Below, one piece after another: positions 6,920 through 42,416 of a DNA stretch of 48,039 nucleotides. Position 1 is the first letter of the stretch. Each line of letters opens with the position of its first letter. Under the pieces are notes generated by a model. That model searched no databases, was not told where the DNA came from, and saw nothing but the letters and a program-made list of their open reading frames with translations. This DNA is from an uncultured Clostridia bacterium (GTDB lineage: Bacteria > Bacillota > Clostridia > Christensenellales > UBA1242): NCBI GenBank assembly GCA_944350095.1, contig CALVOB010000033.1:1-48039 (forward strand). Reading direction: 5' to 3'. Made by a program: the position numbers and the translations under genes.

Positions 6920-7246
6920 ATGTTTAAATCATTACTACTTTTTGCTGAGGGAGATTTACTTCCTGATTGGGTTATTACTACACTTTCAATTGTTAGACCA
7001 TGTTTAATAGGCATTATTACTTTATGTGCAATAGGTCTTATTGTAACAACTTTAATGCAGTCTAATTCTAACGATAACACCTCACAAGCTCTTTCAGGTG
7101 GAATTCACGAAAGTTATTATTCACAAAATAAAGGTGAGACAAGAGATGGAAAGTTAAAGAAAGCCACAATTATTTTTGCTTCAATTATTGCCGTTTGTGC
7201 TATTCTATACTTTGTTACACTTATAATAAACAATCCAACAGTATAA
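6920..7246 (+). CDS. secG: preprotein translocase subunit SecG (long form)
   Basis: TM-LMQS..ALSGGI..-TM pattern resembles B. subtilis SecG (LLQSSKSAGLSGAISGG). Conserved position upstream of rnr-smpB-ssrA. Confidence 0.6.
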   Translation: MFKSLLLFAEGDLLPDWVITTLSIVRPCLIGIITLCAIGLIVTTLMQSNSNDNTSQALSGGIHESYYSQNKGETRDGKLKKATIIFASIIAVCAILYFVTLIINNPTV

Positions 7247-7433: not shown

Positions 7434-9569
7434 ATGACATTAAAAAATCAAGTTTTAGAAATTTTAAATGATAAATCACTTAAATATAAAAATTTGTATA
7501 GTCTTTATACTCAAATTGGAAGAAAACTTTCTATTGATAGAGAAATTGTGGAAGAAATTGTAAATAAATTAATTAAGTCAGGCGAAGTGGTTGAAGGCAA
7601 AAACGGAAAACTTGCAACCCTTCAAACTTTGAAATTAAAAAAGGGTGAAGTTGCAAATAAAAGCAGAGATTATTTATTTGTTAAAGTTCAAGGTCAGGCA
7701 AGAGATTTTTTTATTCCGTCCGATAAAACTAAAGGGGCAATTTCTGGTGACATAGTTTTAGTGCGTCCTAATGGTGGTAATAATGAAGCAGAAGTTGTAA
7801 AGATAGTTGAAAAAGTTAACAGGCAAGTAGTAGGAATTGTAAAAAAAGATGAAATTGGAACTTTTGTTGAAGCAGATAGATTTACAAAACCAATTTACAT
7901 TCAACCAAAGGACTTAAAAGGTGCAGAAGTAAACGACCTTGTTGTTACTGAAATTACTTATCAGCCATCTTCAAAAGAGGGGTTGCAAGGTAAAGTAAAT
8001 GAAATATTAGGAAAGTCTGACGATAAAGCTATTTTAGAACAAGCTATAATTAAGGATTTTAATCTTCCTACTGAATATTCCAAAGAGGCATTAAACCAAT
8101 GTGAGTATATTGGCGATAAAATAAGTGAAGAAGATAAAAAGGGAAGACTAGACTTAACAAAGGAAACAATTTTTACAATCGACGGGGCAGATGCTCGTGA
8201 TTTAGATGACGCTGTGTCTATAAAAAAATTAGATGATGGTACTTTTGAACTTGGAGTTCATATAGCAGATGTTGGCAACTATGTAACATTAGGTTCTCCG
8301 TTGGATCAAGATGCATTTGAACGCGGAACAAGTGTATATTTTCCTGATAATGTAATTCCAATGCTTCCTAAAAAACTATCAAACGGGATTTGCTCTTTAA
8401 ACCCTAATGTTGAAAGGCTTGCATTGTCTGTTATTATGAAAATAGATTATGAAGGTAAAGTTGTAAGCCACGAAATTAAAGAGAGTGTAATAAAGAGTGT
8501 TCAAAGATTTACCTATGATGAAATTTTTGCAATAATGAATGGCGATAAAGAAATGTGTGAAAAATATGCACATTTAAAAGATGATGTTTTAACAATGCAA
8601 AATTTATCTAATATAATAAAAAAAGACAGAGAAAAAAGAGGCTCTCTTAACTTTGATATTCCAGAGGCAACATTTAAACTTAATGAACAAGGCGAAGTGC
8701 TTGATGTAATGCCAAGAGTGCAAAATGAAGCACATAACTTAATTGAAAGATTTATGGTTATATGTAATGAAACAGTAGCTAAGCATTTTGATGATTTAGG
8801 AGTTCCATTTATATATCGTGTTCATGAAAAGCCTACACCTGAAAGTGTTCAAAATGTTCTTGCATTTATACAGGGATTAGGTGTTAATAGCGTGGTTCCA
8901 CCTAAAAAAATAGACCCAACTTTTTATCAAAGATTATTGTCTTTATTTAAAGGAACGCCAGAGGAAAGCGTTTTAAATAAAGTGTTTTTAATGAGTATGA
9001 AAAAGGCTCGTTATCAAGAGGACGATTTAGGACATTTTGGTCTTGCATCTTTAAATTATTGTCATTTTACTTCCCCTATTAGAAGATATCCAGACCTTTG
9101 CATTCATAGAATAATAAAAGAATGTTTGCATAAAGGTTTTGATAAATCCAAGTTATATGAACTTGAAGATTATGTTACGGAAGCAAGCTTTCAGTCAAGT
9201 AAAACAGAAAGGCGAGCAGATGATGCTGAAAGGGCAGTAGATGACTTGAAAAAAGCTGAATTTATGTCTAAACAAATTGGAAAGGATTTTGAAGGTGTAA
9301 TTTCGGGGGTAACAAACTTTGGAATTTTCGTTCAACTTCCAAATACTGTTGAAGGGCTTATTAAGCTTGAAAATTTGCCAAAAGATGACTATGTGTTTTT
9401 AGATAAAAAAATGATGCTATGTGGAACAAAAAGAAATTATTGTTTAGGCGACACAATTAAAGTAAAAGTTGCTGCAAGTAATGTTTTTACAAGAAAAATA
9501 GATTTTGAACCTGTTATAGAAAAAACTCTAAAAAAAACTCCAAAAAAAACAGAAAATTTATGTAAGTAA
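7434..9569 (+). CDS. rnr: ribonuclease R
   Basis: 711 aa. RNB domain motifs (IDGADARDLDDAVS, HFGL..YCHFTSPIRRYPDL) and C-terminal S1 domain (GVISGVTNFGIFVQL). Confidence 0.92.
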   Translation: MTLKNQVLEILNDKSLKYKNLYSLYTQIGRKLSIDREIVEEIVNKLIKSGEVVEGKNGKLATLQTLKLKKGEVANKSRDYLFVKVQGQARDFFIPSDKTKGAISGDIVLVRPNGGNNEAEVVKIVEKVNRQVVGIVKKDEIGTFVEADRFTKPIYIQPKDLKGAEVNDLVVTEITYQPSSKEGLQGKVNEILGKSDDKAILEQAIIKDFNLPTEYSKEALNQCEYIGDKISEEDKKGRLDLTKETIFTIDGADARDLDDAVSIKKLDDGTFELGVHIADVGNYVTLGSPLDQDAFERGTSVYFPDNVIPMLPKKLSNGICSLNPNVERLALSVIMKIDYEGKVVSHEIKESVIKSVQRFTYDEIFAIMNGDKEMCEKYAHLKDDVLTMQNLSNIIKKDREKRGSLNFDIPEATFKLNEQGEVLDVMPRVQNEAHNLIERFMVICNETVAKHFDDLGVPFIYRVHEKPTPESVQNVLAFIQGLGVNSVVPPKKIDPTFYQRLLSLFKGTPEESVLNKVFLMSMKKARYQEDDLGHFGLASLNYCHFTSPIRRYPDLCIHRIIKECLHKGFDKSKLYELEDYVTEASFQSSKTERRADDAERAVDDLKKAEFMSKQIGKDFEGVISGVTNFGIFVQLPNTVEGLIKLENLPKDDYVFLDKKMMLCGTKRNYCLGDTIKVKVAASNVFTRKIDFEPVIEKTLKKTPKKTENLCK

Positions 9570-9596
9570 TTGAAAAACATAAAAAATAATATTTTT

Positions 9597-9629
9597 AAAA
9601 ATCCGAATATAATTTTATCGGATTTTTTT
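9597..9629 (+). terminator. intrinsic terminator after rnr
   Basis: aaaaATCCGA-atataatttta-TCGGATttttttt. Confidence 0.65.
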
Positions 9630-9794
9630 AATTTTGGATTTTTTAATTAATAATTAAACAATTTTTTATATTTTTGCAGTTTATTTTAAATTTAATTTAA
9701 ACTAATTTTAAATATCAATATTTAATTAAATGGATATTAAATTAAAATGATTTTAATTTTACATTAAATAATCGGAATTTTATTTCAAAATGTT

Positions 9795-9822
9795 TTGTTT
9801 TTTTACATATTTCGGTTATAAT
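9795..9822 (+). promoter_or_regulatory. candidate promoter for the VirB4-like gene
   Basis: TTGTTT, 16-nt spacer, TATAAT (9817-9822). SD AAGGGTG precedes ATG 9841. Confidence 0.4.
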
Positions 9823-9840
9823 ACATTAAAAGGGTGAATT

Positions 9841-11337
9841 ATGAGAGTTATTCCTAGAAGAACCAAAGTTAAAATGGAGTTTTTTAAAAATGTTACCTTA
9901 GGTGACATTATTCTTGCTTTTATAGGCGTGGCGGTAGGCTTAGGCTTATTTTTAAGTGGGCTTCCAAATAATCTTGGAATTTGGCTCGGAATAGCTTGGG
10001 TAGCTATAATTGTAAGTTTGTATTTTAAAGTTGCAGATGATGTTAGATTATATCAAACACTTGGTTATGCTATAAGATTTTTAGCTCAAAAAAAGAAATA
10101 TGCAAAAGAAAAAATTAAAAAATTCTATCCTGTTTCTGAAATAATACCTTTTGTTGATATCTATCAAGATAGATTTATTGATTTCAAAGAATACTATGGC
10201 ATGGTTGTAGAAGTTTATCCGTTGGAATTTGGGTTACTTAATGAATATAAACAAGAAATGGTAATAGAAACTTTTGCTAATGCTTTAAGAAGATTATCTG
10301 ATGAGCAAACTGCTTCCATTGTTAAATTAAATAAAGCTATGATTTTAGACTCTTATATTTATAATGAAGATAAAAAGTATGATAATCTTTTAGAGCTTCA
10401 ATATGAGGGGGAAATTAAACCAGAGGAAGTTGAAGTTCGTGCTGGTGTGTTTGAAGAAAGAGTTTCTAGAATGGAAACTATGAACCGTGATGAAAAAATT
10501 TTTAAAGACCATTTTTATGTTGTTGTTTATGATAAAGATAAAGAGCTTTTAGAAAATACAATAAATGGTATAATGAGCACACTTCAAAATTCACCTACAC
10601 CAATGCACACAGAAAGAATAGTTGGTAACGATTTAGCAGTTTTTCTTCGTGCTACATTTGGAAAAGAGTTTGACGAGCGTGAACTTGAAAGCTTGCCGTT
10701 TTCAAAACATGTTGATTGGGCTACACCTAATAAAATAAGATTTCAGGCTAGCAGAGTTATTATAGACGACAAACCTTATAGACAATTTGTTATAAGCGAT
10801 TATCCACTTCAAGTTCCAAATGCTTGGGGATATCCATTTTATAGGCTTGATAGAACAAGAGTTATAACAAAAATTAAACCTGTTCAAAAATTTAAAGCAG
10901 AGCGTGCATTAGATAAAGCCATAATGGAAATGGAAACAAAAGTTGCAAAAGTGGCTAGAAGTAGTAGACAAATTGAAAATCAAACACACCTTCAAACTTT
11001 AAGGGAGTTACTTGCAGGTTTAAAAAACAATAACCAACAACTTTATGATGTAAATATTTTTATTACATGTGAAGAACCTGCAAGAAAAGAGGTTAGAGCT
11101 ATCTTAAAGCAACAAGGATTTAAATATTCCGAAATGTTTGGTCGTCAAGTTGATGCATTTATTAGCTCAAATATTTCTATGAGAGATAATGTGGAAAATA
11201 CCAAACGCGGAATACCAACAACAACTTTGGCTGCTATTTTCCCATTTGTATCAAGTGCACTTCAAGACCCTAATGGTTTCTATATTGGATATAACGAATT
11301 CCCTGTGTTTGTAGATTTCTTTAAAAGAGATAGGTAA
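9841..11337 (+). CDS. VirB3-like TM segment plus VirB4/TrsE-family N-terminal domain (upstream part of a split conjugation-type ATPase)
   Basis: 498 aa. Two N-terminal TM helices (PrgI/VirB3-like), then a soluble domain. Ends at TAA 11335-11337, in frame with the next ORF and just before its P-loop. Confidence 0.65.
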   Translation: MRVIPRRTKVKMEFFKNVTLGDIILAFIGVAVGLGLFLSGLPNNLGIWLGIAWVAIIVSLYFKVADDVRLYQTLGYAIRFLAQKKKYAKEKIKKFYPVSEIIPFVDIYQDRFIDFKEYYGMVVEVYPLEFGLLNEYKQEMVIETFANALRRLSDEQTASIVKLNKAMILDSYIYNEDKKYDNLLELQYEGEIKPEEVEVRAGVFEERVSRMETMNRDEKIFKDHFYVVVYDKDKELLENTINGIMSTLQNSPTPMHTERIVGNDLAVFLRATFGKEFDERELESLPFSKHVDWATPNKIRFQASRVIIDDKPYRQFVISDYPLQVPNAWGYPFYRLDRTRVITKIKPVQKFKAERALDKAIMEMETKVAKVARSSRQIENQTHLQTLRELLAGLKNNNQQLYDVNIFITCEEPARKEVRAILKQQGFKYSEMFGRQVDAFISSNISMRDNVENTKRGIPTTTLAAIFPFVSSALQDPNGFYIGYNEFPVFVDFFKRDR

Positions 11338-11352
11338 AGAGTTAATAGTAAT

Positions 11353-12468
11353 ATGATGATTATAGGAAAATCTGGTTCTGGTAAATCCTATGCTACTAAA
11401 ACACTACTTGCTAACTTTGCCGCGGATAATACAAAGGTGTTTATTCTTGACCCAGAAGATGAATATACTCAGCTATCTAAAAACCTTAGAGGTAAATGGA
11501 TTGATGTAGGTTCTTCTGCAATGGGAATTATAAATCCTTTCCATATTATCACTTCTCTTGAAGCCGATGAGGGTGGAGATGATGATTCTTATTCTATCCA
11601 CTTACAGTTTTTGGAACAATTCTTTAAAGTTATTATGGAAGGAATGAATAGTGAATCATTTGAAATTTTAAACTCTGCGGTTGTAGAAGTTTATAAGCAA
11701 AAGGGAATTGGCCCTGGGGTAGAACTTTCTAAGCTTAAACCTGAAGATTTCCCTATATTTGATGATTTATATAAGTATATATTAAACAAAATTGACACAG
11801 CAAAAACTGAGTACGAAAGAAAGAACTACATGACAGTTGAAACTTATGTTAAAAAGTTTGCTAGCGGAGGAAGAAACTCTAATCTTTGGAATGGTCCAAC
11901 TAGTATGGAAACAAAAGAAAATTTTGTTACATTCAATTTCCGTTCTCTTCTTGCAAACAGAAACCAAGTTATAGCAAACGCTCAAATGCTTCTTGTATTC
12001 AAATATCTTGATAACGAAATTATAAAAAACAAGGATTTTAATGAAAGGTTTAATATAAAGCGTAAAATAGTTATAGCTGTTGATGAAGCGCACGTTTTCA
12101 TTAATCCAAACTATCCAATAGCGCTAGATTTCATGGCGCAAATGGCAAAGCGTATTCGTAAGTATAATGGAATGCAAATTGTTATTACGCAAAATATTAA
12201 GGACTTCGTTGGTTCACAAGAAATTCAGCGTCAGTCTACCGCGGTTATTAACGCCAGCCAATATTCATTTATTTTCTCGCTTTCACCAAACGATATGAAC
12301 GACTTAGTAGAGCTTTATAGAAAGTCTGGTGAAATTAATGAGGAAGAGCAAAATAGCATTGTTACCGCAGGTGTAGGTCAGGCTTTCTTGATTACAGGAC
12401 CTATGAGTAGAACAATGGTGCAGATTGTTGCTTATGACTATGTAAAAAGAATTTTTAGTCAAGATTAA
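11353..12468 (+). CDS. VirB4/AAA_10-type ATPase domain (downstream part of split gene)
   Basis: 371 aa. Walker A IIGKSGSGKSY, ILDPEDEY, Walker B IAVDEAHVF. Same frame as 9841 (11353-9841 = 1512 = 3x504). Confidence 0.75.
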   Translation: MMIIGKSGSGKSYATKTLLANFAADNTKVFILDPEDEYTQLSKNLRGKWIDVGSSAMGIINPFHIITSLEADEGGDDDSYSIHLQFLEQFFKVIMEGMNSESFEILNSAVVEVYKQKGIGPGVELSKLKPEDFPIFDDLYKYILNKIDTAKTEYERKNYMTVETYVKKFASGGRNSNLWNGPTSMETKENFVTFNFRSLLANRNQVIANAQMLLVFKYLDNEIIKNKDFNERFNIKRKIVIAVDEAHVFINPNYPIALDFMAQMAKRIRKYNGMQIVITQNIKDFVGSQEIQRQSTAVINASQYSFIFSLSPNDMNDLVELYRKSGEINEEEQNSIVTAGVGQAFLITGPMSRTMVQIVAYDYVKRIFSQD

Positions 12469-12487
12469 AAAAATGTTTAAAACCCTC

Positions 12488-12516
12488 TTGAAATTGTGGT
12501 ATTATAGTGATATAAT
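12488..12516 (+). promoter_or_regulatory. consensus sigma-70 promoter in front of the 594-aa gene
   Basis: TTGAAA (12488-12493), 17-nt spacer, TATAAT (12511-12516). Confidence 0.5.
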
Positions 12517-12541
12517 ACTTACAAGTAGTAGGAGGGTTTTT

Positions 12542-14326
12542 ATGTTGTATAAAGACTTAATGACAAAAGATACTTATACTGATTTACAAGATTATCTTGA
12601 ACTAGGAGAAGATGCAATCACTTTGATGGGCTATGATAGATCTAGAAGCGTAGATGGAACAAAACTTATAAAAAGGTTTCAAACTACTGCTGACCCAGAG
12701 CTTATGGGAATGGTTAATTCTTTTTCTGGTGATGATGTCATGATTGGTGTGCCAAAGTATGCAGATCGTGGATACTCTTCTTTTGTTGTAAGAGATAAAT
12801 CTTTATCAATCAGGTATCCTTTAACAGGAACTGTTGGAGCTGTTAAGAAATATTTTACACAAAGTGAAAAAACATGCCCTAATTTTAAAAGTGTAATTAA
12901 TGAAATTGAAAGGGCTTTTAAAGTTAAAGTAAAAGATGATGAAAGAATTTCTAAGCCTATATCTTACTTTGGTGGTACAATAAGGCTTGCGGGAAGATTT
13001 GGTGGAGAAAAAGTTAGCGAAGCTGATAAATTAGTGCAAGTATTTAATTTGTTAGCTAAAAATGCAATAAAGGATAAATTCAAAAATACAACAAATCCTG
13101 ATAGAGTTAAATTTGCAACCGAACTTTTAACTACAATGTTTATTGCTGAAAGTTATGATTTAGGTGTTAACTTCAATAGAAAAATCGACAATGCTTTAAG
13201 GCTTCAACTATCTAACACCATAGCTGCTCTTGGAAATGCAAACAAGGAAACAATAAATTTAATTTCTTCACAAGCAGAAAAGGCTGTTGCAAAATTTTTG
13301 AAAAAGAGTGGAAAATCTCCAAGTGATATAGTTAAAACATTAACTAAGTTAGGTTATACTTATACAAAAAATCCAACAAATCTTTATGAAGTGCTTTTTG
13401 GAGAAAGAAAAAACTATATGTTTACACAGGAAGTTTCACAAAAAGATGCAGATGAAATTTTAGGAAAAGTTACTTATTACGACGAAACTCAAGAGGAAAA
13501 TAATTTTGCTAAAGATATGAAAAGAGAACAGGAAAAATACGATACTAAAAAACAAATTCCAGGAACTGAAACTATGATAAGGCTTGAAGGAGAAGAAAAA
13601 CCTTCAGAAAAATCTATTTTTGATTTTGCAGATGATATGGTAGATGAACTTGGAGAAGGGTTAAAAATAGACAAAAAAGTGCCAGATGTAATTCATTTAC
13701 CAGGTAAAGTGGAAGAAAAGCCAGATGTTATAATTCTTCCAGGGAAAGTTGAACCTAAATTGCCAGAAATAACATTAGAACAATTTGTAGCAAAACTTTT
13801 AGAAGAAAATGAAAATAAGGCTTATATTAAGGCTATTGAAGGTAAAATAGATCATAAAAAATCATTGTTTGGCGGGAAAACACAAGTTAAAGATGGAGTT
13901 TCAGAAAGAACTTTAAAAACTATTTTTGATAAAGCGGTTGTTAAAGAGCTTGAAAGTGCATGCAAGGAAATTGTAAGCCAATTTAGAAAAGAAAAAGGTC
14001 AAATTAAAGATGTGCTTTCAGATATATATAATCAACTTACTCACGCAAAACAATTCTTTGGAAAAAGTAGTGACAGAAAGGATATAAAAGCTGTAAGTGG
14101 AAAAATAGTTGAAGCTAAAAAAGTAAAACTTGGGCTTGTAAAACCTTTGGAAGAAAGAAGAAAAGAGTTTATTGAAGAAACAATGGCTTATCAAGATGCT
14201 TTAAGGGGATATGCTCCAACTGAAGATATTAAAGCTAAAATTAAATCTTTATCTGATGCTAAAAAGATTAAAGAAATGGTTAATCGTTATGTTCAATCTC
14301 AAAAAGATGCGGGAATTGAAAAGTAA
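12542..14326 (+). CDS. hypothetical soluble protein (594 aa), partner of the VirB4-like ATPase
   Basis: ATG 12542 lies 5 nt after SD AGGAGGG (12530-12536). The track's 12473 start lacks an SD and overlaps the promoter. No TM segment and no motif I recognise. Internal 13-aa tandem repeat PDVI(H/I)LPGKVE(E/P)K. Confidence 0.7.
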   Translation: MLYKDLMTKDTYTDLQDYLELGEDAITLMGYDRSRSVDGTKLIKRFQTTADPELMGMVNSFSGDDVMIGVPKYADRGYSSFVVRDKSLSIRYPLTGTVGAVKKYFTQSEKTCPNFKSVINEIERAFKVKVKDDERISKPISYFGGTIRLAGRFGGEKVSEADKLVQVFNLLAKNAIKDKFKNTTNPDRVKFATELLTTMFIAESYDLGVNFNRKIDNALRLQLSNTIAALGNANKETINLISSQAEKAVAKFLKKSGKSPSDIVKTLTKLGYTYTKNPTNLYEVLFGERKNYMFTQEVSQKDADEILGKVTYYDETQEENNFAKDMKREQEKYDTKKQIPGTETMIRLEGEEKPSEKSIFDFADDMVDELGEGLKIDKKVPDVIHLPGKVEEKPDVIILPGKVEPKLPEITLEQFVAKLLEENENKAYIKAIEGKIDHKKSLFGGKTQVKDGVSERTLKTIFDKAVVKELESACKEIVSQFRKEKGQIKDVLSDIYNQLTHAKQFFGKSSDRKDIKAVSGKIVEAKKVKLGLVKPLEERRKEFIEETMAYQDALRGYAPTEDIKAKIKSLSDAKKIKEMVNRYVQSQKDAGIEK

Positions 14327-14330
14327 ACTA

Positions 14331-14362
14331 AAATTCAACAGGAAAACCTGTTGAATTTTTTT
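14331..14362 (+). terminator. intrinsic terminator
   Basis: AAATTCAACAGG-aaaa-CCTGTTGAATTT followed by a T run. Perfect 12-bp stem. Confidence 0.8.
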
Positions 14363-14384: not shown

Positions 14385-14831
14385 ATGATGAAGACTATTG
14401 CAGTTAATAAGAAAGCTCTTCATAATTATTTTATTTCAGATAATTTCGAGGCTGGAATAGTGTTAGAGGGAAGTGAAGTAAAATCAGTCAGAGAAGGCGG
14501 AATAAGCATAAATGAAGCTTTTATCCAAATTAAAGATGGTGAAGCTTTTTTAAAGAATGCTTATATTAAGCAATACGATAAAACTTCATCTTTTGCTCCA
14601 AATGAAAAGCGTACCAGAAAGCTTTTATTAAACAAGTCAGAAATATTAAAACTTTTTAAAAAATCAGAAGTTGCTGGTTGCACTCTTGTTCCTTTAAAAA
14701 TTTATATAAAAAATGGGCTGGTAAAACTTGAAGGCGGAGTTGGTAAAGGCAAAAAACTTTACGACAAGCGTGAGGACTTAAAAAATAAGTCTGCGGAAAT
14801 GGAAATTAGGCGTATTTCTAAAAAATTTTAA
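14385..14831 (+). CDS. smpB: SsrA-binding protein SmpB
   Basis: 148 aa. ..IAVNKKALHNYFI..FEAGIVLEGSEVKS..YDKRE.. matches the SmpB signature. Immediately upstream of tmRNA. Confidence 0.92.
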   Translation: MMKTIAVNKKALHNYFISDNFEAGIVLEGSEVKSVREGGISINEAFIQIKDGEAFLKNAYIKQYDKTSSFAPNEKRTRKLLLNKSEILKLFKKSEVAGCTLVPLKIYIKNGLVKLEGGVGKGKKLYDKREDLKNKSAEMEIRRISKKF

Positions 14832-14834
14832 CAT

Positions 14835-15190
14835 GGGGGCGAACAGGTTTCGACGGGGAAGTAGTAAAATTTGCATAAAGCGTGTGGCAGTGTGGATTCT
14901 GCCTTAAAAGCCACAAAAAAATAAACGCAGATTATAGCGAAAATTTAGTTGCTGCCTAAGCGCACAACACGCTTTCCTAAATGCGCACGAGTTTAGGGCA
15001 AAGCGTTCAAATTTCGTGAGCCTTTAAAACAAATTTAGTGCTGTTTTGTTTTAAAAAATTTTAAAGCGCTGGCAAAAGCATACTTGTTTATGATTATGTT
15101 TTTGTAAGATAAAAGAGCATAAACTACACATCGTAGAAAAGCAAATTTTGCCTTTTTCGGACGCGGGTTCAATTCCCGCCGCTTCCACCA
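14835..15190 (+). ncRNA. ssrA: transfer-messenger RNA (tmRNA)
   Basis: 5' GGGGGCG pairs with 3' CGCTTCC-ACCA (G3:U pair, alanine identity). T-arm GGACGCGGGTTCAATTCCCGCC. Tag ORF GCA GAT TAT AGC GAA AAT TTA GTT GCT GCC TAA (14927-14959) encodes (A)ADYSENLVAA. Confidence 0.9.
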
Positions 15191-16249: not shown

Positions 16250-17653
16250 ATGAATAATTTAGTATCTTTATTATCATTTGTAGACTTCGGGAGTGCACTT
16301 GTTAATGTGCTTGCTATTATAGCAATTATCATTGCAGGTGGATTTATCATCTTCTTTTTAGGTGATTTATTACTTTCTATTCTTGATCCTAAAACTGAAG
16401 ATAAGAAAAAAGAAAAAGAAAGTCGCCCTGAAGTTTTAAAGGAAGAAACCAAGGTTGAAGAGCATAAGTTTGTTCCTGTTCAAGAGGTAAAACCTGAACC
16501 TGTTAAAGAAGAAAAAGAGGAAGAGGTTAAAACTGTTGATGAAGACCTTGCTGAAAAAGAGCGTTTAGAGTTGGGCTTCCAAGAAGAACCAAAAGCTGAT
16601 AATTTTGACGAACTTAGAAAGGCTGAAGAAGAATATAAGCAAAATAATTTAAAAGCTATTGAAGAAAGACAGAATATTGTTAAAGAAGAGTCTGCTGACG
16701 ATGATATAGACTTAAATGATTTCTTCTTTGATGATGAAGACTTTAATTTTGGCGTTCAAGAAGATGAAGCTCAAAATGAAGAAAAACCTGAAGAAAAGTC
16801 TGAAGAACAACTTGATGGTCAAGTTTCTATTTTCAACGAAGAGCAAACAAATAATGAAGAAAAAGTAGAAAATGAAGCTACTGAAGAACAATCTGAAAAA
16901 GTTGACGAAGAAGCTTTAGCAGAAATTGAAGAGTTAAGAAAAGAACTTGAACAACAAAGAGCTGAATATGAAGCATTAAAAGAACAAACTGAACAAGAAA
17001 AGAACAAATGGAAGGAAGAAAGAGCTGCTCTTGAAAATCTTTTTGAAGCTACTGAAACTAAGGAAGAATTTGTTCCAATGATGACTTTGAAAGAATATGA
17101 AGCTCGTTTGGAAGTTTTAAAAGAAAGATTAAAGGCAAATGAAAAAGACCTTAAAGCTAACAAGAAAGAATTCTTACCTTTAATGAGAGTTAAGAAAAAC
17201 TTAGATAACGACAAGAAGAAACTTAGAAGAAAAGAAGCACTTGTTGCTAAACAAAAAGTTGTGCTTTATGGCGTTAACAATTATGTAGACATCGACGAAG
17301 AAAAGGCTAAAAAACTTGCTGAAGACTTAGATTTACTTGATGGTTTAAGACTTTCTGTTCAACATTGCGAAGAAGTTATAGCAGCTAATAAGGAAAGATA
17401 TCCAATACTTGAAACTACAAATAGAATTTTAACTACTGTAAATAAAGAGATTAAAGCAGATATTGCAGAAGTTGAAACAGCAATAGCTAAACTTAAAGCA
17501 GAAGAAGATGCTGGTGCAAAAGAAGAAGTTGTAGAAGAAACTCAACCACAAGAAGAGGTTGCTAACGCTGAAGAAAAAGTTGAAGAAGTAGCTTCTAATG
17601 AGCAAAAGCAAGAAGAAACTAATGAAGTTCCTCAAAATAATACAGAAAACTAA
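16250..17653 (+). CDS. membrane-anchored, highly acidic E/K-rich coiled-coil protein
   Basis: 467 aa. One N-terminal TM helix (ALVNVLAIIAIIIAGGFIIFFLG), then about 420 aa of E/K/Q-rich heptad-like sequence. SD AGAGG upstream. Confidence 0.7.
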   Translation: MNNLVSLLSFVDFGSALVNVLAIIAIIIAGGFIIFFLGDLLLSILDPKTEDKKKEKESRPEVLKEETKVEEHKFVPVQEVKPEPVKEEKEEEVKTVDEDLAEKERLELGFQEEPKADNFDELRKAEEEYKQNNLKAIEERQNIVKEESADDDIDLNDFFFDDEDFNFGVQEDEAQNEEKPEEKSEEQLDGQVSIFNEEQTNNEEKVENEATEEQSEKVDEEALAEIEELRKELEQQRAEYEALKEQTEQEKNKWKEERAALENLFEATETKEEFVPMMTLKEYEARLEVLKERLKANEKDLKANKKEFLPLMRVKKNLDNDKKKLRRKEALVAKQKVVLYGVNNYVDIDEEKAKKLAEDLDLLDGLRLSVQHCEEVIAANKERYPILETTNRILTTVNKEIKADIAEVETAIAKLKAEEDAGAKEEVVEETQPQEEVANAEEKVEEVASNEQKQEETNEVPQNNTEN

Positions 17654-22688: not shown

Positions 22689-26135
<3,447 letters not shown>

Positions 26136-31423: not shown

Positions 31424-32980
31424 ATGTGGGCAAATGAAATTGCTGAAAGAATAGTTAGAGAAAGACCAAATGAAAAAGTTTATACAATAGCTTCGGGGGT
31501 AAGTCCGTCTGGATTTGTGCATATAGGAAATTTTCGCGAAATTGTAACCCCATTTTTTGTTGCTAAGGCATTAAAGAATATGGGTAAAAATGTTCGTTTT
31601 ATATTGTCTTTAGATGAATTTGATAGATTTAGAAAAGTTCCTGGAAACATTCCAAGCGAGTATTCAAAATATATTGGTATGCCCTATGTGGATATGCCAA
31701 GTCCTTTTTCACAAAACGAGAGCTATGCTGAATATTTTGAAAAGCGTTTTTTAGGAGAACTTAAAGCTGTTGGTATAGAGCCAGAGTGCATATATCAAGC
31801 TAAAGAATATAGAAGTGGAAGATATGCAGAAAAAATAAAGCTTGCTATGGATAAGCGTTTTGAAATATTCGATATTATAGATAGTTTTAGAACTCAAGAT
31901 GCAGAAGAAGGAGAGAAAGAAAAATATTATCCTATTAGCATTTATTGCGATAGTTGTGGCAAAGAAACAAAGGAAATTGTTTCTTATGATAGTAATTCTG
32001 GGGAAATAGAATATAAATGTGCATGTGGGCATATTGGAAAAACAAATATATTTACAGCTAAAAATATTAAACTTCAATGGAAAGTGGATTGGCCAATGCG
32101 ATGGCAGGCAGAAAATGTAATTTTCGAGTCTGGTGGAATGGACCATTCTACAACAAATGGAAGTCATGATGTTGCGGAAAGAATATCAAAGGAAATTTTT
32201 GGATTTATTCCTCCTATTTATGAACCATATAATTTTATAGGTATTAAGGGCGGGGGAGCTAAAATGAGTTCTTCCACAGGTAATGTTCTTACATTAACAG
32301 ATTTATTAAAGGTCTATGATAAACATCAAATTTTATGGTTTTATGCAAAATATAAACCTATGCAAAACTTTAATCTTGCACTTGATAATGATGTTATAAG
32401 ATATTATAGCGAGTTTGACAGATTTGTTAAAATGATGTTTGAAAATAGAATAGATGAGGGAAATAAGGAAATATTATCTTATACTGATGTAGATGAAACA
32501 TATTTAAATTATCCAAACTTTAGCTATTTAGCAACTTTTCTTCCAATAGTAAACTTTAATTTAGATTTTTTAGCTACTCTTATGAAAAAAGAAAACGCGG
32601 ACCCCACATCTTCTTATTACAAAGAGCGTTTGACAAGAGCAATTTATTGGGTAGAAAATTATGGAAAAGAATATCAAGTTAATTTGCTTGAAAATAAAAA
32701 TATAGAATATTTTAATTCTTTAACAGAGGAAGAAAAATCTTGGATAAATAAAACTATTGAACTTTTAGATAAGGAATATAAAACTAGTGATGAGCTTCAA
32801 ACAGAGTTATATGCTGTTATAAAATATTTAAATTTAGACCCACAAGAATTAAAGAAAGTTCAAAAGCATTATTTTGAAATTTTATATAATTTGCTTCTTG
32901 GTAAAAATCAAGGCCCTAAACTTGGAATATTTTTACTAGCTGTACCAAAAGAAAAATTATTAAACCTATTAAAATTTTAG
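31424..32980 (+). CDS. lysS: lysine--tRNA ligase, class I
   Basis: 518 aa. SGVSPSGFVHIGNFREI (HIGH-type) and GGAKMSSSTGN (KMSKS-type) class I motifs, plus a CxxC..CxC zinc knuckle. Archaeal/spirochaete-type LysRS architecture. Confidence 0.85.
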   Translation: MWANEIAERIVRERPNEKVYTIASGVSPSGFVHIGNFREIVTPFFVAKALKNMGKNVRFILSLDEFDRFRKVPGNIPSEYSKYIGMPYVDMPSPFSQNESYAEYFEKRFLGELKAVGIEPECIYQAKEYRSGRYAEKIKLAMDKRFEIFDIIDSFRTQDAEEGEKEKYYPISIYCDSCGKETKEIVSYDSNSGEIEYKCACGHIGKTNIFTAKNIKLQWKVDWPMRWQAENVIFESGGMDHSTTNGSHDVAERISKEIFGFIPPIYEPYNFIGIKGGGAKMSSSTGNVLTLTDLLKVYDKHQILWFYAKYKPMQNFNLALDNDVIRYYSEFDRFVKMMFENRIDEGNKEILSYTDVDETYLNYPNFSYLATFLPIVNFNLDFLATLMKKENADPTSSYYKERLTRAIYWVENYGKEYQVNLLENKNIEYFNSLTEEEKSWINKTIELLDKEYKTSDELQTELYAVIKYLNLDPQELKKVQKHYFEILYNLLLGKNQGPKLGIFLLAVPKEKLLNLLKF

Positions 32981-37683: not shown

Positions 37684-39288
37684 ATGATTGAAAGAATAAA
37701 AACATTAACTGCAATGCAGTTAAAGAATAGAAAAAATAGGAAGGCTAAAACTAAAACAAGCACTTCTATATCTATTATTATACAAGTTGCTGTTTGTATT
37801 TTAATTACAGTTGCACTTTATTTGATTTTAAATTATTTAAATGAATTAGGAATTTTGCCAATTGATACAAACTTTTTCTTATTCTTGTTGTTTATTACTC
37901 AAGCAATAAGCATTATAGCCTGTGTGTTTGGTTTAGCAAATATTCTTTATATGGAAAAAGATAACACCGTAATATTTAGCTTGCCAGCAAGACCTGCGGA
38001 AATATTTATAAGTAAACTTTCAGTTTTTTATATTACAGAATTTAAAAAGAATTTATTTTTCTTAGTCCCATTCTTTATAGCATTTGGTTTGGCATTAAAA
38101 TTAGGTGTAGTTTTCTATATATTTATTATATTTATGACTTTTTTACTTCCATTCATACCTGTTTTTATTGGAGCAATAGTTTCTCTTCCATTAATGTATT
38201 TTAAAAAGTTATTAAAAAAAATTCCTATATTAAAAATAATTTTAACACTAATTATTGCTTCCTTAGTTATATGGCTACTTGTATATATTACAAGTATAAT
38301 TCCAAGACCTCTTAAAATTGTAGCAATATATGATAAATTTTTTGCATTTTTAAAGGACTTTATAATTTCAGTAAATGTTTATTCTACAATTTATGAAATA
38401 ATAGCTAATGTAATGTTAAGCATTAATTTTTGGATAAATCTTTTATTATTTGTTGCTATACTTGTAGGATTAGCAGGACTTACTATTGGAATTGCATTCT
38501 TATATTTTAAAATAGCAAGTCAAAACTTTGAAAACTCATTTAAACCTAAGAAAAGTCAAAATAATACACCAAGTAAAAACACATTTTTTACTTTTATTAA
38601 AAAAGAAATTATTTTAAATTTAAGAAATACAGAAGTTTTTATTTCTCACTTGTTATATATAATAAGTTTACCTGTTCTACTTTATGTAATAAATGAAGTT
38701 ATTTCTGCCATCGATACAAATTTAAATGGTATTGCAATTGCCTTTGCTGTTAATTTGTTAATAGGGCTTATGTTCTTAACTGCAACTAATACCATGTGTG
38801 CCTCCGCTATAACTAGTGAAGGTTCGGAATTTGGATTAATAAAAACTGCACCAAGTGATACAAGCAAAATTTGCTATGCTAAATTTTCTGTAAATTTTAT
38901 GTTGTCACTTGTGGGTATTATTTCAAGTGTAATAATACTTGCATTTACTTCCAAATTTGATGGTCTTAGTATATTTATTCTTTTTATAACATTCTTATTT
39001 GCAAACACAGCACACATGTTTTGGTCCTTGCAAATAGATGTGCTTCACCCTTATTTAACTGAATATGCAAGCTCAGGGAACATTAGAGATAACAAAAATA
39101 TTGGAACTTGTTTATTAATAGGGCTTGCTATTGCAGTTGTAGTTGCAGTAATAGGATATTTTTGTTTTCAAGGTATGAATATAATAAATATGCTAAAACT
39201 ACCTTTAATCGCTGGACTTTTCTTTGTTCTTCGTTTATACTTATTTCAGATCAATTTAAAAACATATTTCGACAAAATTCAAATGTAA
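37684..39288 (+). CDS. ABC exporter permease-like polytopic membrane protein
   Basis: 534 aa with about 12 predicted TM helices. Immediately downstream of the ABC ATPase fusion. Confidence 0.65.
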   Translation: MIERIKTLTAMQLKNRKNRKAKTKTSTSISIIIQVAVCILITVALYLILNYLNELGILPIDTNFFLFLLFITQAISIIACVFGLANILYMEKDNTVIFSLPARPAEIFISKLSVFYITEFKKNLFFLVPFFIAFGLALKLGVVFYIFIIFMTFLLPFIPVFIGAIVSLPLMYFKKLLKKIPILKIILTLIIASLVIWLLVYITSIIPRPLKIVAIYDKFFAFLKDFIISVNVYSTIYEIIANVMLSINFWINLLLFVAILVGLAGLTIGIAFLYFKIASQNFENSFKPKKSQNNTPSKNTFFTFIKKEIILNLRNTEVFISHLLYIISLPVLLYVINEVISAIDTNLNGIAIAFAVNLLIGLMFLTATNTMCASAITSEGSEFGLIKTAPSDTSKICYAKFSVNFMLSLVGIISSVIILAFTSKFDGLSIFILFITFLFANTAHMFWSLQIDVLHPYLTEYASSGNIRDNKNIGTCLLIGLAIAVVVAVIGYFCFQGMNIINMLKLPLIAGLFFVLRLYLFQINLKTYFDKIQM

Positions 39289-39299
39289 GGAGATTAAAA

Positions 39300-42200
39300 A
39301 TGGCAAAAAAATACATACCAATTATAGCAGGCATTGTGGCAGTTGTTGCAATCATAGTTATTGCAATTATAGGCTCAAATCCAGATATAAGGAATAAAGA
39401 TGTTTATGTTGCTTCTATTAATGTGACTAATCTAGCAAATGGAACTATAAGTGATAATATTGGGGATTATAAATATTATTATATGACAGATGACAATACT
39501 GAAATAGTAGAAAATAAATATACCTTTAAATTAGAGTACACAGTAAGTCCTGCCAATGCAACGCAAAAAACAGTTAATTTTACATCATCAGACACTACCG
39601 TTGCAACGGTCAATGAAGATGGACTTGTTACTTTTGAAAGAAATGAATCTGTTTTTATAACTTTAACAGCAAAAGATGAACGCGCTGTTTCTACAAGGGT
39701 TCAACTTGTTTGGCCAGCTAATGTAGATACAGGTATGTCTGTTAATTTAAATAATGACAACAACTTAGTTTTTGAAAATATAAGCGGAACACAATATTAT
39801 AGTATTGAAGATAATGTATTGTATTTATATAACAATATGAATTATGCAATTGATACTGATGCCGTTTTAGTTGTTTCTGAAACATCTATTGCAAACTTTG
39901 AAGACGGAGCATTAACCACATCTGGCTTAGGTGAGTTTACTTTGACATTTAATTTTGGTGAGGGCGACAAAGCTATCACAAAAGCTCAAACAGTACAAGT
40001 TGTAGAATATATTAATAACTTTCAAATGGGAACAGCTTATGCTTCTTACTTAAATACAGTTGCAAATTTAAACAATGAAGATTTAGCTATCAATTATTTA
40101 AATACAAATGCTATACCTTACGAAGTAGGGGTAGATAATGCTTTTTATTTTGATATAGTTATTCAAAATAACAATCTTGAAACTGTTAATTTGCAAGATG
40201 CAAATCTTGTATATAGTGTATATGAAGTTGTTAATGGGCAAAATAGTTTAATTGAAGACAATTCATCTGTTTTTACAATAAATCAAGATGGAACGCTTCA
40301 ATTTAAATCTACAAGCGTTGGAAAAACATATCAAGTTTCCGTTCTTCCAAAATTCAACTTTTTAAACAGACAAGCTGTAACATTTAATTTTAAAGTTGTT
40401 GAAGGAGTGAATGTATTTACACATTCAGATTTAAAAACATATTTTAAAGATTTAGATATTAATTATATTATATTACATAGCAATATTAGAGTTGAAGTTG
40501 AAGCAAATCAATTAGATCCTTATGGCAGATTAATAAATTATGCTGAACTTACAAGCAATGGTGGAGTTACAGGAGATATATACACAAGATTATACACTGA
40601 ACAAGATTTACAAACATATCAAGATAGTTTAAATGTTACATTGTCAGGAAACTATTTTAAGGTAGATGCAAGCGAACTTCCTTTCTTAACTATCACCTCA
40701 GGGTATTCTTCACATGATACTTTAAAGTGGACACAAGATAGTGGATATCCATGTGCAAGTGTTCAAACAGCCATATTTAAAGTTCAAGAAGTTACTAACG
40801 ATGCTTATAATACTGGTATAGAAAAAACAAATATTGTTAATTTTAATATCAACAACATTACATTAGAAGGTAATACTTCAACAGGAATTTTATATGAAAA
40901 TTTCCCAACAGCCCCAGATACAGGTCTTCCAATTATTCCAGATGACGAGGCTCAGGTAATAGCTGATCAAGGTTCATCTTCTGCAGGATTTATGGGAAGA
41001 GGTGCTGTTATGGTTAACACAAACAATGTTGTTGTGTTAAAGGCACATACAGGTGTTTATGTAACAGGTTCTTGTGGTGGTGTAAATGCTAATTACACCT
41101 TAATAAATGATTCTTGGGGAATAGGTCTCTTTGGTTGGAGGACTTCTTATGTAACACTTGAAAATTTCAAAGTAGTTCGTGCAGGTGGTGCAGCTCTTTG
41201 CTTTACAGATGCTACCATTACAGATGCTTATAGTGAAGATTGGATGGATCTTAATTTAACATTAGGTGAAAATGTTGTTATAGATAATTATGTTGCAGGA
41301 ACAGAGGGATACTTTATTGTAAATGGGCTTTCTGCTGTTGTTCCAAAATTAAAAGGACAACTTAATCCACAAATTCAAACATTAGGCAAAACGGTTCTTA
41401 AAGATGAGATAATAGATGGTCAACCTTATTCAGTTTTCAATTTTGCAATTCAATTCGGAAGAGAATCTAATAATTACGCATTAACAAATTATACAATAAA
41501 TAACATTGGGCAAGAAGATGGTTGGAGAGTTTATGTTCCAGGTATGTGGCTTGAAAGACAAGGAGAATATCTTGTTAATGTAAATAATCCAAATGAAAGT
41601 TACTTAGTTGGAAATAATAAGTCTTATACAATCGCTAAAAAAGAAACTGACAGTCAGTTAACCATCAATTTCTTTACAGGATATAATAATGATAATGAAC
41701 CTGAATACACAACAATAGAAAGAAAGAGTGGCTATTACAATAACGCTGTTGTAAATGCATTTGATGGTGTTGGACTTGCAGGCGTAAGCAAGATTTCAAA
41801 TTTAGATGATGCACTTTTAGTAGCGGGCGTAGTTGGCGGTTACATTACTGATGCTAACTTTGTTCAAGATATAACAGGAGAAGGAACGGCAACAGGTTCA
41901 GTAGCACAATTATTAAATGGGGAAGTTACTCTTATTGAAACAGCTTCTTCCTATGGTTTAAATTTAGGTATAACTTCTACAAAAGATAAAATAATATCTA
42001 AAATTACTGCCCTTGGTACAAATTTAACCACAGGTTTACAAGCATTTGCTGGTTTATCTGATGTTCAAAAAATAGTTTATCTTTGCGATTATGATATGCT
42101 TTCAAATATAAAAACTAATATAGAAACATTCAAAGCTTTACTTGAAAACCCAATGCTTGATATGCTTCCAAATGCAGAAACTGTAAAAACACAAATTCAA

Positions 42201-42416
42201 ACTTTAATAGGCGGATTTGAACAAGTGCCAGCGGGTGCTTCATCAAATGCTACATTAGTTCAAGCAACAGTTGCTATTACATGCAATAACGATTTAATTG
42301 ACATTAAAGATGAAGAAGGCTCTATGAACTTAATAGAAGTTAAAATTAACAGCGAACTTTTAGGAGATTTTTCAGGTATTTTAATATTTGCAGGATTATT
42401 TCCTTATTCAGCTTAA
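39300..42416 (+). CDS. large membrane-anchored surface protein with Big_2 Ig-like domain and probable beta-helix region
   Basis: ATG 39300 follows AAGGAGA. The track's 39108 start overlaps the permease. Signal-anchor IIAGIVAVVAIIVIAIIG. Big_2-like block VSPANATQKTVNFTSSDTTVATVNEDGLVTF. Repetitive N/T/G-rich strands follow. Confidence 0.75.
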   Translation: MAKKYIPIIAGIVAVVAIIVIAIIGSNPDIRNKDVYVASINVTNLANGTISDNIGDYKYYYMTDDNTEIVENKYTFKLEYTVSPANATQKTVNFTSSDTTVATVNEDGLVTFERNESVFITLTAKDERAVSTRVQLVWPANVDTGMSVNLNNDNNLVFENISGTQYYSIEDNVLYLYNNMNYAIDTDAVLVVSETSIANFEDGALTTSGLGEFTLTFNFGEGDKAITKAQTVQVVEYINNFQMGTAYASYLNTVANLNNEDLAINYLNTNAIPYEVGVDNAFYFDIVIQNNNLETVNLQDANLVYSVYEVVNGQNSLIEDNSSVFTINQDGTLQFKSTSVGKTYQVSVLPKFNFLNRQAVTFNFKVVEGVNVFTHSDLKTYFKDLDINYIILHSNIRVEVEANQLDPYGRLINYAELTSNGGVTGDIYTRLYTEQDLQTYQDSLNVTLSGNYFKVDASELPFLTITSGYSSHDTLKWTQDSGYPCASVQTAIFKVQEVTNDAYNTGIEKTNIVNFNINNITLEGNTSTGILYENFPTAPDTGLPIIPDDEAQVIADQGSSSAGFMGRGAVMVNTNNVVVLKAHTGVYVTGSCGGVNANYTLINDSWGIGLFGWRTSYVTLENFKVVRAGGAALCFTDATITDAYSEDWMDLNLTLGENVVIDNYVAGTEGYFIVNGLSAVVPKLKGQLNPQIQTLGKTVLKDEIIDGQPYSVFNFAIQFGRESNNYALTNYTINNIGQEDGWRVYVPGMWLERQGEYLVNVNNPNESYLVGNNKSYTIAKKETDSQLTINFFTGYNNDNEPEYTTIERKSGYYNNAVVNAFDGVGLAGVSKISNLDDALLVAGVVGGYITDANFVQDITGEGTATGSVAQLLNGEVTLIETASSYGLNLGITSTKDKIISKITALGTNLTTGLQAFAGLSDVQKIVYLCDYDMLSNIKTNIETFKALLENPMLDMLPNAETVKTQIQTLIGGFEQVPAGASSNATLVQATVAITCNNDLIDIKDEEGSMNLIEVKINSELLGDFSGILIFAGLFPYSA

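Follow-up and report, generated by a model that had tools for sequence, protein, structure and literature searches.

The DNA considered here, referred to as the window, comprises positions 1 to 48,039 of contig CALVOB010000033.1 (GenBank assembly GCA_944350095.1), from an uncultured Clostridia bacterium of the GTDB family UBA1242 (order Christensenellales). Between its rnr and smpB genes lies a gene for a membrane-anchored VirB4-family ATPase, followed by a gene for a soluble protein of 594 amino acids, here called the partner. Conjugation and type IV secretion have VirB4 as their signature protein, which is normally an accessory protein borne on mobile elements. Here its gene behaves as a core housekeeping gene, with a rate of evolution about equal to that of RpoA and below those of RNase R, SmpB and HflX. 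The window has a GC content of around 29% and uses the standard bacterial genetic code (table 11). The features of the locus are as follows.

6920-7246: secG.
7434-9569: rnr.
9570-9840: AT-rich spacer between rnr and the ATPase gene, 271 bp, 12.9% GC.
9581-9606 and 9618-9643: arms of a terminator-like hairpin of rnr, within the spacer.
9817-9822: -10-like TATAAT upstream of the ATPase gene, perfect by eye, with a poor -35 region.
Within the spacer, ahead of the ATPase ATG: AAGGGTG, resembling a ribosome-binding site.
9841-12468, forward strand: VirB4-family ATPase gene, 875 codons, with one in-frame stop in the window copy.
9841-11337, forward strand: open reading frame (ORF) A, 498 amino acids; a transmembrane (TM) hairpin and then the VirB4 N-terminal domain.
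11335-11337, forward strand: in-frame TAA in place of a conserved GAA (Glu499), in the motif RDRERVNSN just upstream of Walker A.
11353-12468, forward strand: ORF-B, 371 amino acids; the VirB4 C-terminal P-loop domain.
11365-11388, forward strand: Walker A, GKSGSGKS.
12079-12093, forward strand: Walker B, VDEAH.
12488-12516, forward strand: best sigma-70-like site of the region, TTGAAA-17-TATAAT with an upstream TG, 11/12.
12542-14326, forward strand: partner gene, 594 amino acids, soluble; an ORF of 617 amino acids if the start is placed at 12473.
14330-14359: terminator-like hairpin between the partner gene and smpB, 13 bp, GC-poor, flanked by T and A runs.
14385-14831: smpB.
14835-15190: tmRNA, 3' of smpB and followed by a NUDIX gene.

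As an initial annotation of this stretch had recognized, rnr, smpB and the tmRNA gene flank a segment of about 4.8 kb (the gap between rnr and smpB is 4,815 bp) with an AT-rich spacer on one side and a terminator on the other. The promoter that it placed upstream of 9841 is not borne out, for a consensus promoter scan gave no site of at least 9/12 there. The strongest promoter-like site instead sits between the two genes, just 5' of the partner, which may therefore have its own transcription. Compared with conspecific contigs at 99% identity, the spacer carries window-specific insertions at 9609-9611, 9722-9728 and 9738-9746, so that the length of the rnr-ATPase intergenic region differs between strains through strain-specific insertions and deletions. 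The only Rfam element in the window is the tmRNA.

The ATPase is a true VirB4 of two domains, to which a membrane hairpin is fused. Its two N-terminal hydrophobic helices span residues of around 20-42 (nucleotides 9898-9966) and 44-66 (9970-10038), and the motifs GKSGSGKS, ILDPEDEY and VDEAH that had been read from the sequence are all present, with Walker A and Walker B invariant across the aligned homologues. When the two ORFs are joined, the protein aligns end to end with the NCBIfam model NF045975, the Mbov_0397 family ATPase for conjugal transfer of integrative and conjugative elements (ICEs), over model positions 5-893 of 894 with 588.0 bits. The curated cutoff of this model, 590 bits, is missed by the window protein and equally by its relatives P0001 (582.2), P0117 (588.6), L073 (569) and L061 (559.7). 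An end-to-end alignment that scores below the cutoff denotes a sister subfamily rather than an equivalog, and the ATPase is accordingly a sister subfamily to the Mollicutes ICE ATPase Mbov_0397/TraE. Weaker NCBIfam matches are to the CD1110, TraC and VirB4_CagE models; positions 3-400 of NF045971 (conju_CD1110) align to residues 100-486 and thereby cover the VirB4 N-domain (E 3e-14).

The Pfam models named in the initial annotation gave a divided result. AAA_10 and DUF87 match, as does P-loop_TraG, and all of these matches are confined to the C-terminal P-loop domain, but PF03135, sought in the N-domain, gives no match at E <= 0.01, and neither do VirB3 and PrgI. The likeness of the N-terminus to VirB3 or PrgI is thus one of topology, two TM helices, and not of detectable homology at that threshold. 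The sole sequence match in the PDB is the VirB4 of Thermoanaerobacter pseudethanolicus (4AG5, E 2e-52), which concerns the C-domain. With an AlphaFold2 (AF2) model of the 95%-identical homologue P0001 (mean predicted local distance difference test, pLDDT, 72) as query, Foldseek returned full-length TrwK/VirB4 of the R388 type IV secretion system (T4SS; 8RTD and 7O43) at E of about 5e-20 over 770-890 columns, with HerA and TrwB matches only at E >= 2e-4. It is because the NF045975, 4AG5 and TrwK/VirB4 matches agree that the family is assigned as it is, and the earlier description of a membrane-anchored VirB4-type ATPase with an uncharacterized partner is upheld. Other P-loop families come a distant second: FtsK_SpoIIIE matches at E 0.0065, under that model's cutoff, and PADLOC gives weak generic P-loop matches only, to mad8 and HerA, the latter spanning some 40 residues around Walker A. 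A best match to a HerA/FtsK-type ATPase over the whole ATPase domain, combined with a defence or division context, was not found.

The initial annotation treated the ATPase as a single protein, which is right for the family but not for the window copy, in which the TAA at 11335-11337 separates the two ORFs. Read through the stop, the translation is ...FFKRDR*RVNSNMMIIGKSGSGKS..., and the stop takes the place of a residue that is Glu or Asp in all nine aligned sequences, within a motif, R-[ED]-RVNSNMMI-x-GKSGSGKS, that is otherwise invariant. The codon is GAA in the DNA of the six closest relatives, and the TAA, a single G-to-T change, is seen in the window only. At every one of the 88 other loci examined the ATPase is one intact ORF of 857-933 amino acids. 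Two conspecific contigs (L093 and L094, 99.0% nucleotide identity) likewise carry an intact 875-amino-acid gene, and from L093 the window copy differs by 26 synonymous and two nonsynonymous codons, K388R and E499*.

The window contains a second broken gene, for pyruvate:ferredoxin oxidoreductase (PFOR), at 22698-26135, where a TGA at 23208-23210 leaves ORFs of 170 and 953 amino acids; intact relatives have about 1,145. Here the window reads T7-TTTT-GATTT where L093 has T7-GATG-GATTT, with the length unchanged, and the translation is HFFF*FRTSHE in place of the HFFDGFRTSHE of relatives. Since the two lesions are both length-neutral and fall in strongly constrained genes, one of them within a homopolymer, error is favored over decay: the PFOR stop is probably an assembly or sequencing error in the homopolymer, and such an error is probably also the origin of the TAA at 11335, in preference to a very recent but real nonsense allele. 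An alternative genetic code was considered and rejected, as most long ORFs are intact under table 11 and the interruptions use different stops, TAA and TGA, where the conspecific contigs have sense codons. Programmed readthrough or a naturally split gene was rejected too, since GAA and a single ORF are what the 88 other loci examined and both conspecific contigs show.

The distribution of the ATPase was followed in GTDB contigs, one genome per species, with a detailed comparison of the best 80 of 214 relatives. At least 214 species genomes hold a relative, and the best 80 are 61-97% identical to the window protein, with one copy per assembly. A protein search gave more than 1,000 homologues, of which the best 120 (846-912 amino acids, 66-95% identical) all come from metagenome-assembled genomes labelled Clostridia, Christensenellales or Eubacteriales. 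The named members among the relatives are Candidatus Caccopulliclostridium gallistercoris (97% identical), Candidatus Caccovivens, and "Christensenella sp." UBA1242 and UBA5489. Caccopulliclostridium and Caccovivens were placed in UBA1242 by Gilroy et al., with genomes of 1.0-1.1 Mb (PMC8035907), and genus UBA5489 is listed within UBA1242 by Begmatov et al. (PMC12306168). The taxonomy of the named members therefore ties the ATPase clade to the GTDB family UBA1242, the genomes of which are around 0.7-1.1 Mb. The nearest plasmid- or ICE-type copies, from Spiroplasma and Mycoplasma, are only 25-31% identical.

Every related genome examined has the ATPase, at a position that is stable within each sub-clade and differs between sub-clades. 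The arrangement rnr-ATPase-partner-smpB belongs to the window and its genus. Elsewhere the gene is found in the orders rpsK-rpsD-rpoA-rplQ-(small ORF)-ATPase-partner-fba, ftsA-ftsZ-iPGM-ATPase-greA, and hflX-x-220-amino-acid ORF-ATPase-giant lipoprotein, and further contexts exist. In a neighbor-joining (NJ) tree rooted with Mollicutes sequences, loci that share a context group in a clade of their own, or very nearly. The deepest ATPase clade is marked by two neighbors of the gene: always 5' of the ATPase is a conserved ORF of around 220 amino acids of no known family, and directly downstream, in L074 (10633-18667) and 26 other loci such as L061 and L088, is a surface protein that resembles a lipoprotein and exceeds 2,650 amino acids, which has a signal peptide and lipobox, no Pfam match, and extends past the fetched locus.

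The rate of evolution of the ATPase is that of a core gene. Its pairwise identities co-vary with those of HflX (r = 0.95, 29 species) and RpoA (r = 0.965, 11 species). In 99.5% of pairs the ATPase exceeds HflX in conservation, and it comes close to RpoA (mean identity 0.849 for the ATPase, 0.871 for RpoA). Within the window's genus, the ratio of nonsynonymous to synonymous substitution rates (dN/dS) is 0.015-0.037 in both halves of the protein, an approximate figure given that synonymous sites are saturated. Between the window and L009, dN is 0.025 for the ATPase, 0.096 for rnr and 0.12 for smpB. Taken together, the ATPase is a vertically inherited, single-copy, strongly constrained core gene of a reduced-genome clade.

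These observations also overturn the view, taken in the initial annotation, that the two genes were inserted between rnr and smpB. The order rnr-ATPase-partner-smpB is ancestral for the genus-level clade, with the reservation that synonymous sites are saturated, and the position shifts only between sub-clades. Because the contexts track the tree, the ATPase co-varies with marker proteins, the GC contents of the ATPase (0.32) and partner (0.31) genes are the same as those of the rnr and smpB flanks, and no boundary repeats were found beyond chance-level matches around the locus, the 4.8-kb segment is an old, vertically inherited part of the chromosome and not a recent arrival. The same annotation was correct that this is not a recognizable ICE or T4SS. 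All sizeable ORFs across the 48 kb were scanned, and none is a relaxase, coupling protein, VirB6, hydrolase or integrase, each encoding either a housekeeping protein or one of no family. A relaxase, an integrase or DDE transposase, boundary repeats, atypical composition and a patchy distribution, the marks of an ICE, are all absent from the locus.

The partner was described from the outset as soluble and without a recognizable family, and this holds in Pfam, NCBIfam and PADLOC, with one weak match in PHROGs; no nuclease, protease or toxin domain was detected. Its start at 12542 is backed by homologues. The conserved N-domain (residues of around 1-290) contains invariant R45, S79, P93, F105, L219, L221, Q222, G271 and P278, and is followed by a variable, acidic and lysine-rich linker and by a C-terminal helical domain (around 450-594). 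Confidence in the AF2 model is low to moderate (pLDDT 57), with values of about 80 in the core at 110-290 and 450-594, and the conserved N-terminal 100 residues are disordered in this monomer model. Within the linker lies a pair of motifs, PDVI(H/I)LPGKVE, encoded at 13682-13741 (PDVIHLPGKVEEK and PDVIILPGKVEPK), and PDVI-x-L-[PG]-like motifs occur in the linker of 14 of the 72 partner-family members. Given this recurrence, the motif may be a short linear binding motif.

Relatives of the partner are few. A word-indexed search gave nine matches, to which a repeat with a 23-sequence profile added none, and when 1.84 billion representative proteins were scanned in full with HMMER, only 43 were found. 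The family is confined to the clade of the ATPase, where it evolves around ten times faster (dN 0.25 against 0.025; dN/dS 0.17-0.45), with a mean column identity of 29% compared to 81% for the ATPase. Directly 3' of the ATPase, the 80 species loci have a member of the partner family in 23 cases, the giant lipoprotein in 27, other genes in 24 and no ORF in six, and the loci with a partner span ATPase identities from 64% to 97%. The proposal of a minimal two-component system therefore fails, the partner being directly downstream in a minority of loci and having its own promoter-like site. Comparison of the partner with the giant lipoprotein by hmmsearch and hhalign was non-significant. The partner may be an adaptor, a substrate or a regulator.

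In Mollicutes, the VirB4 gene is preceded by genes for a pilin-like protein (Mbov_0395) and a polytopic, VirB6-like membrane protein (Mbov_0396). Every ORF in the window and in the related loci was searched with hidden Markov models (HMMs) or phmmer queries for pilin-like proteins, lipoprotein, VirB6-like protein and the T4SS coupling protein. Matches were obtained only in L073, L082 and the metagenome contigs L091 and L092, and nothing was found in the window or the other 84 loci. These four make up a sub-clade, with an ATPase around 63% identical to that of the window, in which the genes form an operon.

L073 1-13075, L082 1-10386 and L091 1-9644: extents of the operon region.
Two pilin-like genes (NF045849, E 2e-10).
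A lipoprotein gene, 560-600 amino acids.
A VirB6-like gene, 955-994 amino acids (NF045848, 113 bits against a cutoff of 90).
The ATPase gene, then a gene for a protein of 620-690 amino acids, then one for a conserved protein of around 80 amino acids.

In L073, the divergent upstream gene (3-1991, opposite strand) encodes a coupling protein with T4SS-DNA_transf, TraG-D_C and TrwB_AAD_bind domains. The downstream flanks of the operon are housekeeping genes such as mnmA, and no relaxase or integrase was seen within these short contigs. Co-located genes of the kinds by which a T4SS locus is recognized (VirB6-like; pilin or VirB2-3-like; VirB8-like or hydrolase; coupling protein) are thus seen in the sub-clade of L073, L082, L091 and L092 only, and not at the window. 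Used as a query in a metagenome scan, the VirB6-like protein found only two loci, each of them arranged as the operon. Identities among members of the operon clade are 81-92% for the ATPase, 42-51% for the VirB6-like protein, 28-42% for the lipoprotein and 21-27% for the post-ATPase protein; the last of these proteins and the partner are alike in size, solubility, position and very high rate of evolution. As the gene set persists as an operon in one sub-clade, the ATPase family descends from a T4SS of the minimal Mollicutes type.

Elsewhere in the window, three further observations concern other genes. The lysyl-tRNA synthetase at 31424-32980 is of class I (archaeal-type, PF01921) and not the usual bacterial class II. 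At 16250-17653 is a protein of 467 amino acids without a family match, in which an N-terminal membrane segment is combined with a long region that is rich in Glu and Lys and resembles a coiled coil; it is kept just downstream of smpB and the NUDIX gene across the same genus. Finally, 37684-42416 contains two large ORFs in different frames that overlap by 180 nucleotides, one of 534 amino acids without a family match and the other of 1,102 amino acids with one Big_2 domain. They may represent cell-surface proteins, or the start of the second may be mis-called.

On balance, the locus probably encodes a chromosomal, vertically inherited VirB4-type translocation ATPase, a domesticated T4SS motor that is a core gene of UBA1242. 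A transport function, a substrate, a role for the partner and a link to lifestyle are what we infer from the comparisons. The ancestor was a minimal Gram-positive T4SS like that of the Mollicutes ICEs, comprising VirB4, pilin-like proteins, a lipoprotein, a VirB6-like channel and a coupling protein, and one sub-clade has kept this set as an operon. In most lineages, including that of the window, the ATPase gene has come through rearrangements to stand by itself among housekeeping genes, and at about a third of the species loci it is followed by the fast-evolving soluble protein, a candidate adaptor or substrate. The membrane-anchored ATPase is predicted to act as a hexamer that hydrolyses ATP to drive the assembly of a T4SS-type channel, the transport of DNA or protein through such a channel, or both, and the remaining subunits, if kept, would be encoded elsewhere in the genome. 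The machine could plausibly serve cell-to-cell exchange in a partner-dependent lifestyle. A bolder form of the proposal, which we advance only tentatively, is that VirB4 is the conserved motor of a non-mobile, T4SS-derived machine for cell-to-cell transfer, and that the UBA1242 bacteria, with genomes of about 1 Mb and a crippled biosynthesis, depend on this machine to take up macromolecules from partner cells or exchange them. This would make it a Firmicutes counterpart of the essential Saccharibacteria T4SS. The fast-evolving downstream proteins (the 594-residue partner, the operon-clade protein of around 650 residues and the surface lipoprotein of more than 2,650) would then be substrates of the machine or contact factors, each specific to its lineage.

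Several observations weigh against a domesticated T4SS motor at this locus. As sequenced, the ATPase gene is truncated. The 48-kb window contains no other T4SS gene, and in 76 of the 80 species loci none occurs within 8 kb on either side of the ATPase. No homology between the partner and any T4SS protein could be detected. The Foldseek search of its model that the initial annotation had proposed gave no PDB match better than E 0.45, and hmmsearch and hhalign comparisons with the post-VirB4 protein of the operon clade (around 650 amino acids) and with Mycoplasma Mbov_0399 were non-significant. In addition, the NJ tree nests the operon clade inside the solitary clades, which, if the root is right, implies several independent separations of the ATPase from its operon.

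The main rival starts from this solitude. It holds that the channel was lost and that the membrane-anchored VirB4-like ATPase was repurposed for another essential task, which it would perform alone or with lineage-specific partners. It might, for instance, move DNA during division or sporulation, take up DNA or handle membrane proteins. The position of the gene among unrelated housekeeping genes in most lineages (adjoining rplQ, ftsZ-iPGM, hflX or rnr), a conservation on a par with core informational proteins, and the variable downstream neighbor across the 80 loci are all as it would predict. The TM hairpin and N-domain, however, remain highly conserved. In the R388 T4SS structures the TM and N-domain parts of VirB4 contact subunits of the VirB3, VirB6 and VirB8 types, and it is because of these contacts that their conservation counts against an ATPase acting without a T4SS. 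The sub-clade that retains the operon also shows the same degree of ATPase conservation (81-92%), and we know of no precedent for a stand-alone, repurposed ATPase of the VirB4 type. We regard a role outside any T4SS as doubtful, though as the leading rival.

Two other explanations fare considerably worse. That the ATPase is a leftover pseudogene in a decayed ICE, as the initial annotation had allowed, would account for the in-frame stop, for the Mollicutes ICE or plasmid VirB4s being the nearest annotated relatives, and for the T4SS cluster with a coupling protein in related genomes. That cluster, an operon beside a coupling protein, embeds the ATPase but not the ATPase-partner pair, whereas the initial annotation had named an embedding of the pair in a complete conjugative element as the sign of a decayed ICE. 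Decay is nevertheless very unlikely and largely refuted. The low dN/dS holds in both halves of the gene, the conspecific copy differs by 26 synonymous changes to one missense change, and the gene is intact in the 88 other loci and two conspecific contigs; the dN/dS values and intact conspecific copies rule out a remnant. Moreover, identity to mobile-element copies is 25-31% compared to 61-97% within the clade, and repeats, an integrase and a GC shift were looked for at the locus without any being found. Still harder to credit is a two-gene anti-phage defence or conflict system, in which a membrane ATPase would be paired with an effector or sensor that evolves fast, and which the initial annotation had also entertained. 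The dN/dS of the partner would suit it, as would the weak matches of the P-loop half to mad8 and HerA in PADLOC and to HerA defence complexes in Foldseek (E of about 2e-4), but these matches are restricted to the generic P-loop and VirB4 is better by many orders of magnitude. The ATPase is universal, single-copy, vertically inherited and very slow to change, the opposite of defence genes, and neither a patchy presence among strains nor a defence-island location was seen. The partner, for its part, has none of the domains of a nuclease, protease or toxin, and most lineages do not have it next to the ATPase.

A domesticated T4SS motor, if this is what the gene encodes, has wider implications. 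A literature search turned up no account of a solitary or core VirB4 in Christensenellales or UBA1242, and the annotations "ATP-binding protein" and "DUF87" mask a well-defined VirB4 subfamily. Were contact-dependent transfer to be its function, the ATPase would offer a molecular handle on how the UBA1242 bacteria, which are abundant in animal guts and uncultured, obtain what they cannot make. The two probable assembly errors, in the ATPase and PFOR genes, are flagged for users of this contig.

Among known systems, the VirB4 of Mollicutes ICEs and plasmids (TraE/CDS17; NF045975) is the closest, with the same end-to-end architecture including the N-terminal TM hairpin and, in one UBA1242 sub-clade, the same upstream neighbors (an Mbov_0395-like pilin and a TM protein like Mbov_0396/MMCAP2_0566). 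The UBA1242 ATPase differs in its 25-31% identity, its scores of 560-589 bits, its use of code 11, and in being a slow, vertically inherited gene that is not on an ICE or plasmid and usually lacks T4SS neighbors. With TrwK/VirB4 of R388 it has the two-domain fold in common at a sequence identity of 13-14%; in R388, VirB3 is a separate protein, whereas the UBA1242 ATPase has a fused TM hairpin and no surrounding VirB locus. The similarity to Thermoanaerobacter VirB4 resides in the C-domain. A chromosomal, non-ICE parallel is the TrsE-like module of the Mycoplasma hyopneumoniae group, in which a VirB4 of the same family also lies among housekeeping genes but, unlike in the window, retains the pilin-like, VirB6-like and Mbov_0399 genes next to it. 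According to a comparison from 2013, M. hyopneumoniae 7448 has two TrsE-like copies, and M. flocculare and M. hyorhinis have a single copy each (PMC3610235). In Mesomycoplasma hyopneumoniae NCTC10127 (NZ_LR214993.1; L090, 11409-21056), the chromosomal cluster dprA-Mbov_0395-Mbov_0396-Mbov_0397-Mbov_0399 is flanked by eno/serS and rpsT/aspS with no ICE genes nearby, a second VirB4 module among housekeeping genes.

The final comparison is with the Saccharibacteria (Patescibacteria), the chromosomal T4SS of which is described in a review as essential for epibiotic growth (PMC12857230). Begmatov et al. report that the vast majority of GTDB UBA1242 genomes are smaller than 1 Mbp, and that UBA1242 genomes lack most biosynthetic pathways, including those for amino acids, nucleotides and lipids, as well as standard nutrient transporters. 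They propose that these bacteria are obligate symbionts or parasites with possible intercellular connections; the ATPase gene goes unmentioned (PMC12306168). In both groups T4SS genes are chromosomal and conserved rather than carried on a mobile element, the cells are monoderm, the genomes are of about 1 Mb or less, and a partner-dependent lifestyle is predicted or shown. The Saccharibacteria have a full gene cluster with a pilin array, whereas in most UBA1242 lineages the ATPase alone is seen. The parallel is a suggestive analogy, and, if it holds, UBA1242 would be the second independent case, after the Saccharibacteria, in which a dependent lifestyle has recruited a T4SS.

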